Below, in pieces: positions 13,067 through 56,446 of a DNA stretch of 64,000 nt (the first letter of the stretch is position 1; every line of letters starts with the position of its first letter). The stretch spans positions 480,001 through 544,000 of the forward strand of contig JBEKFP010000002.1 of the NCBI GenBank assembly GCA_050013255.1, given 5' to 3'. Position numbers and translations under genes: made by a program. Below the pieces are notes generated by a model. It saw nothing but the letters and a program-made list of their open reading frames with translations, did no database searches and was not told the DNA's origin. This DNA is from Candidatus Bathyarchaeia archaeon (GTDB taxonomy: Archaea; Thermoproteota; Bathyarchaeia; 40CM-2-53-6).

Positions 13067-14284
13067 TTGGAAGCACATGTGGTCGAAACGCCCGCTGGCC
13101 TTTTCATATTAGATGAAAAGGCAACCGTACTCGAGAAAGTCTACTTCTCACCTAAACCGGAAACTGCAGCCGTCGAACTCAAGGAGTTACAGGAGGGTAA
13201 GCCCTCAAAGGAAGTTGTTGAGGCCCTCAAGCGGGCCGCCAAGAAGCACAGCCCCTTGGTATTCGAGAATGAACAGCTCGCCAGAGCCGCCGCGAAAGGA
13301 GAAAAACTGAAGACAGTCGTCAGGAGCTCCCCGGTTGCTGAGCAATTTCGAACTCAACTAGGCTCAGAGTGGGAAGGGCGTGAGGATTGGTTGAAGAAAC
13401 AATCCCTCGAATCGCCTATCCTCATAACCCCCAAAGCCTACAACGATTTCACTCGACAGGTGACTTTGCAGCTTGCACGGGCTGGAATTGCGGTTGCGGC
13501 AGCTAGGCGTGACCTGAGCGCGGTACAAGCCGTCCGCGCAATGGACGACGTGGATAAGGTCTTGAACCTGCTCGCAGGGCGCGTACGCGAATGGTTTGGG
13601 CTCCACTTCCCAGAAATGGACAGGATGGTAGAGAAACATGACGCTTACGCACGGCTAGTTGCAAAACTTGGAAATCGCAGGAATTTCACCTACGAAAGGC
13701 TAGTGGCCGAGGGCCTACCGAAGGAGAGAGCAGAGGAGCTCACCGACGCCGCAAGGAGATCCATGGGCGCCGAAATCAGCGAGCCTGACCTAGTAGTGCT
13801 TCAGTCCTTCTGCGAACTCATGCTAGACCTCTACAAATTCAGAGCCAAAAGCGAAGCGTACGTTGAGGAGGTTCTCAAACAAGTAGCCCCCAACATGACC
13901 GCCATTGTAGGAGCCCCCCTTACCGCCAGGCTGATCTCGATCGCAGGAAGCCTCGACAACCTCTCGAAAATGCCGTCGAGCACCCTACAAGTTCTCGGTG
14001 CAGAAAAAGCCCTCTTCCGCTCATTGAAGACCGGCGCCAGGCCGCCCAAACACGGCGTGATCTTCCAGCACACCGCCATCCATCAAGGCCCCCGATGGCA
14101 ACGAGGAAAAATCGCTAGAGCTCTATCCGGGAAACTTAGCATTGCCGCCAGGATTGACGCCTTCGGCGGCGACTTCCTCGGGCAAAAGTTGAGGGAAGAC
14201 GTCGACAGAAAAATCGGCGAGATAAAGGAACGCTACAAGATGCCGCCTCCACTGAAGAAGAGAGACGTTGGCCGGAAACGTTAG
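13067..14284 (+). CDS. nop5: Box C/D RNP protein Nop5 (Nop56/58)
   Basis: REWFGLHFPE, QVLGAEKALF, PPKHGVIFQ, GKIAR. Confidence 0.96.
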   Translation: MEAHVVETPAGLFILDEKATVLEKVYFSPKPETAAVELKELQEGKPSKEVVEALKRAAKKHSPLVFENEQLARAAAKGEKLKTVVRSSPVAEQFRTQLGSEWEGREDWLKKQSLESPILITPKAYNDFTRQVTLQLARAGIAVAAARRDLSAVQAVRAMDDVDKVLNLLAGRVREWFGLHFPEMDRMVEKHDAYARLVAKLGNRRNFTYERLVAEGLPKERAEELTDAARRSMGAEISEPDLVVLQSFCELMLDLYKFRAKSEAYVEEVLKQVAPNMTAIVGAPLTARLISIAGSLDNLSKMPSSTLQVLGAEKALFRSLKTGARPPKHGVIFQHTAIHQGPRWQRGKIARALSGKLSIAARIDAFGGDFLGQKLREDVDRKIGEIKERYKMPPPLKKRDVGRKR

Positions 14285-14963
14285 GCCGCACGACCCTTTC
14301 GAGGGCGTCTACTGGGTAACCCTCGAAGAAGGCAGCAAGCGCCTCGCAACGAAAAACCTAGCACCGGGCATCAGCGTCTATGGTGAACAATTAATCGAAA
14401 GCAGCGGCACTGAATTCAGAACATGGGATGCTTACAGGAGCAAGCTGGCCGCCGCGATTCTTCGCAACATCAGCTCACTTCCCATCAAGCCAGGCAAGGC
14501 GGTGCTCTACTTAGGGTCCGCATCGGGCACCACAGCAAGCCACGTCAGCGACATTGTCGAGGAACGGGGGAGGGTGTACTGCGTAGAATTCGCGCAAAGA
14601 AGTATGCGGGAGCTAATCGACACGCTGTGTCAGCATCGCTCCAACGTCTACCCCATCATGGCAGACGCACGTATACCGGAAAAATACAAGGCCTTGGTGG
14701 ACCGAGTGGACGTAATCTATTCAGACGTCGCTCAACCAGAACAAGCGAAAATATTGGCGGACAACGCTGACCTCTTCCTCAAACCAAAGGGTTCAGTTTT
14801 GATTGCGATAAAGTCGAGAAGCGTCGACGTCACCATGGAGCCTACCGATGTTTTCAAACAGGAGACTGGGATACTTCGGGCAAGGCATTTCGACATTCTT
14901 CAGACCGTACGTTTGGAACCCTACGAGAAAGACCATGCTTTGGTCTTGGCCAGTCGGGCATGA
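14268..14963 (+). CDS. flpA: Fibrillarin rRNA/tRNA 2'-O-methyltransferase
   Basis: RSKLAAAI, LYLGSASGTTASHVSD, DVAQPEQ. Confidence 0.97.
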   Translation: MAGNVRPHDPFEGVYWVTLEEGSKRLATKNLAPGISVYGEQLIESSGTEFRTWDAYRSKLAAAILRNISSLPIKPGKAVLYLGSASGTTASHVSDIVEERGRVYCVEFAQRSMRELIDTLCQHRSNVYPIMADARIPEKYKALVDRVDVIYSDVAQPEQAKILADNADLFLKPKGSVLIAIKSRSVDVTMEPTDVFKQETGILRARHFDILQTVRLEPYEKDHALVLASRA

Positions 14964-53050: not shown

Positions 53051-53455
53051 CTACTTGCTTTGATCCTGTTCTTGCAGCTCGGCCTTCTTTCTGTTTAGCC
53101 AGCTGAGGAATTGGAATAAAGCTTCGTTGTCCTTCTCCATCGAAACGTCTAGAATCTGAGAACCAAGACGAGCAAAGACGTGAATTACGAGAGCGTAATG
53201 CACCACGACATCTTCGACTTCCTTCAAGTACTTGGAATATTTCTCGGCCACACCTAACACTGTGAGTGGACCTAACGTAATGAACTCTTCATCAACCTCA
53301 GTTGGCGTATGCGACCTAACATTAGGGCGCATCTGGTTCAGTACTACCTCTCCACCCGCCGTTGTCAATCCCACCCAACGTATCTTGTTGCTTACGGCGA
53401 AGACTTCTTCTAAACGTAAAACAGGGCGCACAAATGTCACTCCTTTGACTTCCAC
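53051..53455 (-). CDS. Roadblock/DUF6659-like small sensor protein
   Basis: KIRWVGLTT..G, MRPNV..., VVVHY pattern. Confidence 0.6.
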   Translation of the reverse strand: MEVKGVTFVRPVLRLEEVFAVSNKIRWVGLTTAGGEVVLNQMRPNVRSHTPTEVDEEFITLGPLTVLGVAEKYSKYLKEVEDVVVHYALVIHVFARLGSQILDVSMEKDNEALFQFLSWLNRKKAELQEQDQSK

Positions 53456-53928
53456 ATTAGACTGGCTTTCAGTTGATTCCTCTCCTGATCATAAGTCAAA
53501 CTCGCTACCTCCAGGTCCCGACCGAGCAACGCACCTAACGCTCCACGCCACCAAGAGACAAGGAACGCTCTATGGGCTCCGATATTTCCTTTCACGCTGG
53601 GATTCGATATCTCCAGCAAGATTGGGTCGAGAGCGGATGGAGTTGGAGGGATCGTTACCTGAGTGATACCTGCCCCTGACATGGATTCCGACACAGCGAG
53701 GAAATCGATGATTTCGTTAACAGAGGCTCCCGGTCTCTCCTTCCGGATGTTTTCCGCATCAAGTTTTCCGAGGCGGGATTCCAAATTATTCATTATGACT
53801 TCTGCTACTTGTTGACCCACCAGGGAGTTAAGATGGTCACAAAGGGCTTGTGCATCAATTGCCGTATGACGCTTCCCGTTGATGATGAGCTCCCCTTTCT
53901 CCTTGTCCCACCACGTTTCCTCACTCAT
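53437..53928 (-). CDS. V4R/4VR-like ligand-binding protein
   Basis: KGELIINGKRH, GAG..., WWRGALGALLG; start at ATG 53928. Confidence 0.65.
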   Translation of the reverse strand: MSEETWWDKEKGELIINGKRHTAIDAQALCDHLNSLVGQQVAEVIMNNLESRLGKLDAENIRKERPGASVNEIIDFLAVSESMSGAGITQVTIPPTPSALDPILLEISNPSVKGNIGAHRAFLVSWWRGALGALLGRDLEVASLTYDQERNQLKASLMWKSKE

Positions 53929-53929
53929 T

Positions 53930-54187
53930 AAGACGCCATGCTCCTTACGTTTCTTACTCCAGTTCATGGGTGTCTTAGCTGCAGATCGATGAAAGCGGGT
54001 AGTTGAACCGCGCCCCGCATGACTTCTCATAGTCCAATATCGCCTTATGGTTGGCGTATTGCGTTAGCATTACCTTCAGGTATGCGCCAAAGACCCCAGC
54101 CCGATCTTGCGGGTTCTCATACAGGAAGACGGCGTGGTCTCTAAGCGATAACCCACGCACGTATTCCTCGACCGCTGTGATGACCAA
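53930..54187 (-). pseudogene. MEDS-domain gene remnant
   Basis: DHAVFLYE joined directly to ILDYE...ICS*D (internal deletion, with TAA where Tyr is expected) and further stops. Confidence 0.6.
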
Positions 54188-54842
54188 TGCCTACAACAGT
54201 CCGCGTAATACGTATGACAGTTCGTGTAATATGCATGCTGTCACCCGGCACCATCGTTCGTCGACTAGGCGTTTTCGAAATAGTCTTCGCCTAGGTTCTA
54301 ACAGCACTTGGAAAGGCCCGACCTAGAGCCAACACATGGTCCTACTGCTTGCCCCGCTCTTGCTACAATGAGAGAATTATCGTTTGGAGAGATTAGTCAA
54401 CGCCCAGCCTCAACCAACAAAACTAATTGGTACAGACAAGAATTTGTACTTCTGGATTCGGAATGAAACCGCTCCAATAGCGGAAAGGGGCTGATTGGAC
54501 GTGGGAATCGTGTGTAGATTAATGATGAATTCTTTAACTTCAGAGCGATCACAGATTCTCATCTAGTTTGTATCGTTGGAAGGAGACTCGGGCGTCGCCC
54601 GGGACGAGACACTTGTTATGTTCTTGTCCTGAACAAATTTAGCGTTCTGCAACATAGAAAGAAAAGGCACCCATGAAAGAGAACATGAGACTCTCAACAC
54701 ACTCCCCCACTCGTTTCCATTGTAATTCATAGGAGCTCTGCAGAAAAACAAAGCAGCAAAACCCAAATGCCAAGGCACAAGGCACTCCCGAAGGTTTAAT
54801 GGATGGAGATCTTCAAGCGGTTTGGAAGTGGACTGCGTACGC

Positions 54843-55092
54843 GAAAATGATGTGTCCATTAAGTGCAGAGCGCCCTCAGCCGGCGCTGTGATGTTTCGAC
54901 GGGCAGACTGATTCATTATCTCCCGTCGACTACCCCCTCGGAGATTCTCAGCCAATTTAACAGGAAAATTGCGTCCCTTAAGTGGGGAAAAGTGGTCATG
55001 GAAGATAACGCGTCCTTTAAGTTCAGAGCGCTCTCAGCCGGCGCAGTGATGGCATTCGACGGGCAGACTGAATCCCATTCTCTCCCGTCGAA
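54843..55092 (+). repeat. Tandem duplicated structured element (54843-54929 and 55001-55092; partial copy 54964-54984)
   Basis: Shared core CAGAGCGCYCTCAGCCGGCGCWGTGATG..TTCGACGGGCAGACTGA...TCTCCCGTCGA. Confidence 0.9.
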
Positions 55093-55189
55093 CCCGTATA
55101 CCGAAGGGTCCCGGTCACATGAACTACCCCTGCCGTGAATTGTGTCAAAGCTTAAATTTGCATCTCGAGCCTCGTCATGGGGAAACTGT

Positions 55190-56446
55190 GTGACGTGCAC
55201 TGTAGTCGTCGGAGCGCAGTTCGGCGACGAGGGAAAAGGGCGAATTATAGATTACCTCGCTGCCCAAGCCGATTTTGTTGTTAGGTTTCAGGGGGGCAAT
55301 AATGCGGGGCATACGGTGGTGAATGATTTTGGCACATTCAGGCTTCACCTGGTTCCGTCCGGAATCTTCTATCCTCGGGTTGTTTGCATAGACGGGGCAG
55401 GAACGGTAATTGACCCGTCCTCCCTGATAGAGGAAATTGAGACGTTAGAGAAAGCCGGAGTTAAGACCAACAACCTCTGGATTGACAGAAGGGCACATAT
55501 CGTCTGGCCTTACCACCGACTCCTTGACGGGGCAGGCGAGCAGAAGGGCGGCCTTGGGACAACTCGCCGCGGCATCGGGCCCGTATACGGCGACAAGGCG
55601 GCTTACCGAGGCATTCGAGTGGGGGACCTTTTACATCTCGACTTCCTGCAAACAAGATTGAAGGCGGTTCTTCCCCTCAAGAACCACGAATTGGCGTACT
55701 ATGGCCTGAAGCCGCTTCAACTTGAGGACCTCATACAGCAAGCCAAGGAGTGGAGCGATAAACTGGGAGCGAGGATCGTTGATTCGCTTCCGATCTTGCA
55801 CGAAGCACTCTCAAAGGGGCGGAAAGTCCTGCTCGAAGGACAATTGGGTGCAATGCGAGACCTTGACTGGGGAATTTACCCTTACAGCACCGCTTCATCG
55901 CCTACCGCTGGCGGTGCCTGTGCCGGCGCCGGCGTATCGCCCCGTTCAATTGAGAGAATTGTTGGTGTTGTGAAAGCGTACACAACGGCAGTTGGGGGCG
56001 GTCCATTTCCCACAGAACTCTTTGACAAAGACGGAGACCGTCTCCGCGAAATCGGCGACGAATACGGGGCAACCACTCAGCGGCCTCGACGGTGCGGCTG
56101 GTTAGATGCGGTTATCCTCCGCCATGCCGTATCACTAAATGATATCACAAGTCTTGCAGTCACGAAACTTGACGTTCTAGACTCATTGGAGAAGGTGAAG
56201 GTTTGCACTGCTTATCGTCTTGATGGAAAGGAAATAACGGAAATGCCGGACACAGTGAACCTTGGAAGAGTGCAACCTATCTACGAAGAATGGGCAGGCT
56301 GGAAAAAGCCAACAACGAGCGTCAGAAAGTGGGATGACCTTCCAAAGGCAGCGCAAGATTACCTGAAGCGTATCGAAGAACTGACTAAGGTGCAAATTCA
56401 GTATGTGTCCGTTGGCCCTGAACGAGAAAACATCGTAATACTCTAA
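55190..56446 (+). CDS. purA: Adenylosuccinate synthetase
   Basis: GAQFGDEGKG, GGNNAGHT, GTTRRGIGP, RRCGWLD. Confidence 0.98.
   Translation: MTCTVVVGAQFGDEGKGRIIDYLAAQADFVVRFQGGNNAGHTVVNDFGTFRLHLVPSGIFYPRVVCIDGAGTVIDPSSLIEEIETLEKAGVKTNNLWIDRRAHIVWPYHRLLDGAGEQKGGLGTTRRGIGPVYGDKAAYRGIRVGDLLHLDFLQTRLKAVLPLKNHELAYYGLKPLQLEDLIQQAKEWSDKLGARIVDSLPILHEALSKGRKVLLEGQLGAMRDLDWGIYPYSTASSPTAGGACAGAGVSPRSIERIVGVVKAYTTAVGGGPFPTELFDKDGDRLREIGDEYGATTQRPRRCGWLDAVILRHAVSLNDITSLAVTKLDVLDSLEKVKVCTAYRLDGKEITEMPDTVNLGRVQPIYEEWAGWKKPTTSVRKWDDLPKAAQDYLKRIEELTKVQIQYVSVGPERENIVIL

Follow-up and report, generated by a model that had tools for sequence, protein, structure and literature searches.

Tandem repeats upstream of purA in a Bathyarchaeia genome are probable genes of a box C/D sRNA family with predicted guides to 16S rRNA

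Introduction

In a stretch of 64,000 nucleotides (nt) from the genome of Candidatus Bathyarchaeia archaeon (assembly GCA_050013255.1, contig JBEKFP010000002.1, positions 480,001 to 544,000; called the window from here on), two direct repeats at 54843–54930 (copy 1) and 55001–55092 (copy 2) lie on the plus strand upstream of purA, the gene of adenylosuccinate synthetase. The question raised by this locus is what such a pair of kink-turn elements does in front of a purine biosynthesis gene. An earlier note on this DNA proposed tandem riboswitch aptamers, and gave as alternatives a pair of small RNA (sRNA) genes or the debris of a mobile element. The analysis described here supports the sRNA alternative in a modified form. 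Box anatomy, covariation, complementarity to 16S ribosomal RNA (rRNA), the presence of the partner protein genes and the phylogenetic distribution suggest that both repeats are very probably genes of one Bathyarchaeia family of box C/D sRNAs, which would guide rRNA methylation.

Box C/D anatomy

The two copies are spaced by 158–162 bp from start to start. They are 84% identical across the first 51 nt, and differ by substitutions and by two 2-nt indels. The motif CA-GA-GCGC[loop]GCGC-WGU-GA-UG and a second stem UCGACGGG/CCCGUCGA are present in copy 1 and copy 2 alike, as the earlier note had described. Its view that the element is non-coding also agrees with the data, because the indels break all reading frames, and the open reading frames (ORFs) that overlap the copies matched no Pfam family.

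Sequences of 60 relatives were aligned, and the anatomy of the copies was read from about 30 distinct homologues, in which all four boxes occur in the canonical order C / D′ / C′ / D. Copy 1 starts with GAA (54843–54845), the 5′ strand of a terminal stem, which pairs with UUC at 54912–54914, and these flanks covary between species. The C box AUGAUGU (54847–54853) is similar to the RUGAUGA consensus and nearly invariant in the homologues. It is followed by the 12-nt D′ guide GUCCAUUAAGUG (54854–54865) and by the D′ box CAGA (54866–54869), with an invariant GA and a second base that covaries with the C′ box. The next part is a covarying hairpin with the stem GCGCC/GGCGC and the loop CUCAGCC (54870–54886), which closes the C′/D′ kink-turn, and then come the C′ box GUGAUGU (54888–54894), as placed by the alignment, the D guide UUCGACGGGCAGA (54895–54907) and the D box CUGA (54908–54911), which is invariant in all homologues. 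In copy 2 the position of the C box carries the degenerate sequence AUAACGC (55005–55011). The alignment and the covariance model place behind it the D′ guide GUCCUUUAAGUU (55012–55023), the D′ box CAGA with the hairpin GCGCU-CUCAGCC-GGCGC and the C′ box GUGAUGG (55024–55052), and the D guide CAUUCGACGGGCAGA with the D box CUGA (55053–55071). The D′ spacer is 12 nt long, and the D spacer has 13 nt in copy 1 and 15 nt in copy 2.

This arrangement changes several assignments made in the earlier note. The sequence GUGAUG, at which its sRNA alternative would start with a C-like box, is the C′ box, and the true C box AUGAUGU is located 41 nt further upstream. The terminal D box, which the note had found to be missing, is the CUGA inside its second stem. 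The sequence TTAAG, which was taken for a TATA-like box of the element, is part of the D′ guide and follows the overlooked C box.

The kink-turn geometry itself is well supported by the homologues, and it corresponds to the internal C′/D′ motif. It comprises a GCGCY/RGCGC stem, the bulge WGU and invariant GA/GA, followed by U-A and G-C pairs. The C′/D′ hairpin is paired in 100% of 30 homologues, with compensatory changes at three of its five pairs, and the pair beside the tandem G·A pairs (3b·3n) also covaries, being A-U in 15, G-C in 6 and U-G in 3 homologues. The covariation score of the kink-turn was not reached by any of 500 shuffles. The terminal stem, which is 3–6 bp long, covaries across species as well (GAA/UUC, CAA/UUG, GGUU/AAUCC and GAUUUG/CAAAUC, as read by eye). 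A pseudoknot between UCAG of the hairpin loop and CUGA, suggested previously, was rejected as unnecessary: it would have 4 bp, both motifs are invariant and thus allow no covariation test, and each of them is otherwise explained.

The genes for the proteins of such a particle are present. Those of Nop5 and fibrillarin are located in the window at 13541–14954 on the plus strand (PF01798, E-value 2.4e-72, and PF01269, E-value 2.4e-98, respectively), and the gene of L7Ae is found elsewhere in the genome (PF01248, E-value 9e-28). In the assembly that we propose, L7Ae would bind two kink-turns, the C/D one closed by the terminal stem and the D′/C′ one closed by the 5-bp hairpin and not by the usual kink-loop (K-loop), and Nop5 and fibrillarin would then assemble on the sRNA.

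Predicted targets in 16S rRNA

Because the assembly does not contain its own 16S rRNA gene, the targets were read on the 16S sequences of five congeners, in E. coli numbering. The thresholds for guide pairing, 8 and 9 bp, were taken from published work (PMC6009581 and PMC4644070). The data showed that the D′ guide forms 10–11 bp and the D guide 8–10 bp with 16S rRNA, with a Watson–Crick pair at the N+5 position. The D guide pairs over 8 contiguous bp with GCCCGUCG (1401–1408), and in the five congeners C1402 is opposite the fifth base before the D box, which is the placement proposed in the sRNA alternative of the earlier note. In other families the D guide has the form ...CGAYGGGCGRN, and it pairs in the same register, over 9–10 bp in the genomes checked from f7, f8 and f10, and over 8 bp in the f17 genome. 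Across the clades the paired 16S span is 1399/1401–1408, and the nucleotide at 1408 is G in all Bathyarchaeia 16S genes checked. Fibrillarin would be expected to 2′-O-methylate C1402, in the decoding centre, once the D guide has paired with 1401–1408.

The D′ guide of the copy 2 type forms 10–11 bp with (A/C)ACUUAAAGGA (16S 908/909–918) and places U912 at N+5; for copy 2 itself these are 10 bp with 909–918, or 11 bp with the 16S intron described below removed. The D′ guide of copy 1 is complementary to the same segment, 908/909–918, with one internal A·A mismatch. Pairing of the D′ guide with 909–918, in the strand of helix 27 and the central pseudoknot, would direct methylation to U912. Helix 27 has been predicted as a methylation hotspot in archaea (PMC4644070).

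The D′ guide varies by clade, and families f8 and f14 have AUUCAGCCUU, which is complementary to 16S 900–908 and places G902 at N+5. The hairpin loop UCAGCC, which is conserved in the lineage of the window, is complementary to the 16S sequence GGCUGA (902–907). The D′ target follows this loop target immediately on its 3′ side, and the antiparallel order of the two contacts is colinear. The D′ guide of f8 and f14 and the loop of the window's lineage match the same 16S strand through the same hexamer, UCAGCC. The complementarity suggests that the loop probably adds six accessory pairs with 902–907.

In 23S rRNA no better guide site was found. The D guide has a perfect 14-nt match at 309320–309333 of contig 2, inside a 352-amino-acid (aa) ORF; chance alone would give about 0.02–0.07 of such matches. 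As it has the same sense as the guide, it cannot be a target, and it is most likely a chance occurrence.

A separate observation was made on the 16S genes of the window's family, which carry an insert of 35–50 nt between A908 and A909 (five same-genus genomes, G018, G017, G014, G011 and G016, and also G099, G152, G172 and G034; around positions 870–925). The insert folds as a bulge-helix-bulge intron with an outer helix AAG/CUU, a 4-bp central helix GCUG/CAGU and the 3-nt bulges AAU and UCA, and its inner helix shows compensatory changes. Its excision would restore the canonical sequence AAGGCUGAAACUUAAAGG, which is uninterrupted in 37 other Bathyarchaeia genomes. The sRNA loop and D′ guide are complementary to both exon ends that flank the intron junction.

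Distribution and history of the family

The covariance model R1 detected the family in 44 of 151 sampled Bathyarchaeia genomes, usually as one copy. They comprise 11 of the 11 sampled genomes of the window's family, members of most families of the order, and three further families. Within the genus, 21 of 22 genomes matched at the DNA level; they are Bathyarchaeia metagenome-assembled genomes (MAGs) from peat and soil. The D guide is a constant feature of the family across the clades, and orthologues occupy the equivalent syntenic position in dozens of species.

Three further contigs (L046, L048 and L061) that carry this Bathyarchaeia sRNA and its purA neighbour are filed in MAGs labelled Methylomirabilota, Acidoferrum and Acidiferrales, and they are probably mis-binned archaeal sequences. 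The remaining two bacterial matches, L051 and L064, are explained by chance agreement with the pattern in GC-rich DNA.

In the genome of the window, model R1 detected these two full copies only, and neither BLAST nor the covariance model found further copies in the 2.46 Mb beyond this locus. The locus itself contains two remnants on the plus strand. A decayed third copy at 54519–54558 retains a perfect C box AAUGAUGA, the D′-guide-like sequence AUUCUUUAACUU and CAGAGCG, with the remainder deleted or diverged (model R1, 15.9 bits, E-value 0.0026). A fragment at 54963–54998, GCGUCCCUUAAGUG, resembles the 5′ part of one copy (repeat D8, 4.6 bits), and judging from its sequence it may serve as a TATA-like element for copy 2.

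Tandem partial copies such as these two, at 54519 and 54963, are what could be expected if the repeats were mobile-element debris, such as a miniature inverted-repeat transposable element (MITE) or an IS605 end, as the earlier note had considered, or the remnant of a protein-coding gene. This explanation is contradicted by the single matching locus, by the synteny of the orthologues and by the lack of terminal inverted repeats, and the broken frames and unmatched ORFs argue against the coding remnant, so that we regard its probability as close to nil. The sequence ACTACCCC, which the note saw behind both copies, does occur after both, but it is conserved in no homologue.

The duplication is restricted to the genus of the window. 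The purA-proximal copy, here copy 2, is ancestral, and the “type 1” copy, here copy 1, is the duplicate. In genome G017 (locus L009) the type 1 copy is located beside the old upstream neighbours, away from purA, and in G018 and G019 no purA was found within the 1.5 kb examined around it. The C box has been lost in copy 2 of this genome and in its orthologue in G011, which has AUAAUGC at this position, with the other parts kept; in G011 the hairpin formed with the 3′ trailer, described below, is also short of two pairs. Copy 1 is the intact gene, and copy 2 is probably decaying or only partly active.

Relation to purA

The purA gene of the window extends from 55190 to 56446 on the plus strand, with a GTG at 55190 as the likely start codon, and encodes the long form of the enzyme; the match to the family PF00709 was obtained with the short-form homologue found in a relative. 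A candidate B recognition element (BRE) and TATA-like sequence of purA, AAAG-CTTAAATT, is located at 55147–55158, downstream of both sRNA copies. The earlier note had also seen that purA has its own TATA-like box, and this box indeed sits between the sRNA copies and the purA start. The equivalent BRE/TATA, AAAGTTTTATA, directly follows the sRNA in families f5, f6 and f7. Since this element lies between the sRNA and the start codon, the sRNA is probably absent from the purA mRNA. For copy 1, a candidate BRE/TATA, GAAGGTTTAATG, is found at 54790–54801, about 47 nt before the C box, and the homologues have RAAA-CTTTAAR 30–47 nt upstream of the C box, from which the sRNA would be transcribed independently. 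About 26 nt past the TATA-like box of purA, at 55177, there is an ATG whose frame is shifted by one base relative to purA.

Across the order, including families f2, f5, f6, f7 and part of f10, the sRNA is in most genomes on the same strand as purA and 35–370 nt upstream of it. In most relatives the PurA encoded beside the sRNA is of the short archaeal form (~335 aa), with only 27–32% identity. The long form (~420 aa) occurs in part of the genus, in two groups with 45% and 85–100% identity (window 55142–56446; L012, L016, L078 and others). From these comparisons it looks as if the short-form purA was replaced in place by the long form, with the upstream sRNA retained.

The same-strand position across the order, kept through the apparent replacement of purA, is the best point in favor of a cis-regulatory role, in which the element would be a purA leader, either a riboswitch or an L7Ae-responsive kink-turn, that controls transcription or translation of the gene. 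Binding of L7Ae to kink-turns in 5′ untranslated regions (UTRs) has also been proposed as translational control in archaea (PMC5539422). On the other hand, every conserved block of the element corresponds to C/D box sRNA anatomy, and once the boxes and rRNA guides are accounted for, there remains no core that would resemble a ligand pocket. The Rfam/Infernal scan that the earlier note had recommended for its riboswitch idea gave no match to a riboswitch class at gathering thresholds. The predicted promoter arrangement, in which purA has its BRE/TATA downstream of the element and the sRNA has its own further upstream, does not fit a leader either, and no terminator and no helix that masks a start site was found. 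Moreover, the members in f8, f14, f17, part of f10 and part of g2, as well as the type 1 paralogues, are not linked to purA. The copies are not scattered over the genome and covariation does exist, in agreement with what the earlier note expected of its element, but these unlinked members do not agree with a tie to purine genes. Finally, the genes upstream of the sRNA in relatives (pyrG, a helix-turn-helix (HTH) regulator and an ORF of ~100 aa) are syntenic too, and the linkage to purA may therefore be plain conservation of a gene block. For C/D sRNA genes, a tight and conserved linkage to protein genes has been described before (PMC6009581). Taken together, a purA leader seems very unlikely, and tandem aptamers are not supported.

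On the other side of the sRNA array, the ORFs at 54051–54326 (plus strand) and 53437–54030 (minus strand) matched no Pfam family. The relatives have pyrG, HTH and small-ORF neighbours upstream of the sRNA instead, so that this genome has undergone a rearrangement 5′ of copy 1. No transfer RNA genes were found within the window.

The 3′ trailer and its pairing with the D guide

Both copies are followed by a short sequence complementary to their D guide. In copy 1 the trailer is UCUCCCGUCGA (54919–54929), with a duplex energy of −17.4 kcal/mol versus a background mean of −9.6, and in copy 2 it is UCUCCCGUCGAA (55081–55092), with −18.0 kcal/mol; both duplexes are part of the minimum free energy (MFE) structure. 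The trailer starts 7–14 nt after the D box, and UCUCCCGUCGA(A) pairs with the D guide over 11–12 bp with one bulged C. In the MFE structure, the loop of this guide–trailer hairpin contains the D box as well as the 3′ half of the terminal stem.

The trailer is present in all four sampled genera of the window's family and in family f5, and f6 has part of it. Families f7, f8, f10 and f17 lack it and have an oligo-T run or AT-rich sequence in its place. Where it is present, the duplex has −17 to −21 kcal/mol versus a background of about −9 to −10. The registers differ by clade, being bulged or unbulged, and the trailers of f5 and g2 were misaligned by MAFFT. The trailer tracks the clade-specific bases of the guide (AGA/UCU, GAA/UUC, GGG/CCC(G) and AGACGAC/GUCGUCU). 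Several duplexes use G·U pairs, and the loop between the arms varies from 11 to 25 nt, which suggests selection on an RNA hairpin and not on a DNA operator. At the same time, the guide core stays complementary to 16S rRNA in all clades, which indicates that rRNA pairing is selected as well.

Two other roles of the trailer were considered and disfavored. A protein operator does not agree with the arm spacing of 11–25 nt and with G·U pairs that exist on the RNA strand only, and a target for trans pairing in the purA 5′ UTR does not agree with the position of the trailer upstream of the purA TATA box. The trailer could be a cis anti-guide, or pseudo-substrate, which would fold back in the primary transcript and mask the D guide; we propose this tentatively, as our best guess, although at well below even odds. 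As the main alternative, it may be a structure that forms the 3′ end or insulates the sRNA ahead of the purA promoter. The two roles could also be combined.

The position of the trailer bears on a further explanation, according to which a real C/D sRNA gene has a guide–trailer hairpin that also sets read-through into purA, or occlusion of purA, and so couples purA to the status of the sRNA or of rRNA. It is consistent with this idea that in f5 and f6 the trailer ends 2–5 nt before the purA BRE/TATA, that selection maintains the pairing of trailer and guide, and that the trailer-less f7 has an oligo-T run at the same place, suggesting a need there for a 3′-end or insulating signal. However, hairpin-dependent termination is not established in Archaea, and in this genome the trailer of copy 2 does not abut the purA TATA but lies about 55 nt upstream of it. 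We consider such coupling unlikely, although less so than a purA leader without an sRNA. A more specific version, in which the RNA is a self-masked “pro-guide” whose D guide toggles between the nascent 16S decoding-site strand and its own trailer, so that opening or 3′-end formation would report ribosome assembly and feed into purA expression, appears improbable. Coupling of self-masking to purA is much less likely, far below self-masking alone. An auto-inhibited archaeal C/D sRNA was not found described in the literature searched.

Discussion

The reading of both repeats as box C/D sRNA genes explains the conserved parts of the element, and several observations weigh against it. One group concerns the predicted targets. 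They could not be read on a 16S gene of the same genome, which is absent from its assembly; the D-guide duplex in the window's genus has only 8 bp; and the D guide has a second 8-bp site, with one G·U pair, in the variable helix 17 of 16S rRNA. The helix 17 site is judged less likely, because the core of the D guide is conserved throughout the class. In copy 1, the A·A mismatch is in the middle of the D′ duplex and leaves 6–7 plus 3 bp. The other group concerns the RNA itself. Copy 1 has a C box of the expected kind, but copy 2 is without a usable one, and the D spacers exceed 12 nt in both copies. At gathering thresholds Rfam gave no match to a C/D family anywhere in the 64-kb window, and a permissive scan of 54300–55400 (E-value ≤10) gave only two chance-level matches, both outside the two copies. 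Lastly, if the trailer were kept on the mature RNA, its hairpin of 11–13 bp should out-compete rRNA for the D guide. With these points considered, our confidence in the assignment to the box C/D sRNAs is high.

The element resembles archaeal box C/D sRNAs, such as the sR RNAs of Pyrobaculum and Pyrococcus, in the order of boxes, the 12-nt D′ spacer, the short terminal stem and the N+5 rule. These RNAs likewise can have two guides to nearby functional regions of 16S rRNA, their own promoter and a conserved linkage to a protein gene (PMC6009581, PMC4644070). In contrast to their K-loop linker of 3–9 nt, the C′/D′ motif here is a true kink-turn with a covarying 5-bp hairpin and a conserved 7-nt loop. 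Further differences are the D spacer of 13–15 nt, the 3′ extension that pairs with the D guide, and the lack of an Rfam C/D match. A standard kink-turn upstream of a protein gene is also shared with the L7Ae-bound kink-turns in archaeal 5′ UTRs, identified by RNA immunoprecipitation sequencing (RIP-seq) (PMC5539422), and with SAM-I and c-di-GMP-II riboswitches. Unlike these, the element described here has the full set of C/D boxes with rRNA guides, is located upstream of the purA promoter, and has no aptamer-like core.

The predicted D target is a site modified in all three domains. In yeast, Cm1639 is assigned to snR70. The equivalent of C1402 is 2′-O-methylated as Cm1402 in E. coli, by the protein enzyme RsmI that makes it in bacteria, as Cm1639 in yeast, Cm1703 in human and Cm1369 in Pyrococcus abyssi, and in plants this equivalent is guided by AtU43 (PMC11542601, Tables 1–2). 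Yeast snR70, human U43/SNORD43 and plant AtU43 guide Cm1639, Cm1703 and Cm1645 of 18S rRNA, respectively. The predicted target of the Bathyarchaeia sRNA is the equivalent nucleotide, in the P-site and decoding centre (PMC11542601), and its likeness to these snoRNAs is by target only.

The several complementarities to one rRNA are similar to those of U3 and of archaeal long-range double guides. Double guides that bind regions close to each other in three dimensions have been proposed to act as chaperones of rRNA folding (PMC4644070). Here, the segments 902–907, 909–918 and 1401–1408 converge around helix 27, the central pseudoknot and helix 44. Unlike in these systems, it is the loop of the internal kink-turn hairpin that would provide the third contact, and no such arrangement was found described in the literature.

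C/D sRNAs of Bathyarchaeia were not found described in our literature searches, and the sRNAs reported here very probably form an undescribed, class-wide C/D family for the universal Cm1402 site. The present data remove a false riboswitch lead and explain the “TATA-like” boxes of the locus. The linkage to purA, which is order-wide and appears to have survived the replacement of one purA type by another, is noteworthy in its own right. The family offers a concrete example of a C/D RNA with a kink-turn hairpin and a third element complementary to rRNA, and its covarying 3′ anti-guide provides a testable case of a self-masking guide RNA. For a large uncultured class of archaea, it supplies a predicted guide for C1402, the small-subunit ribose methylation that is common to the three domains of life.

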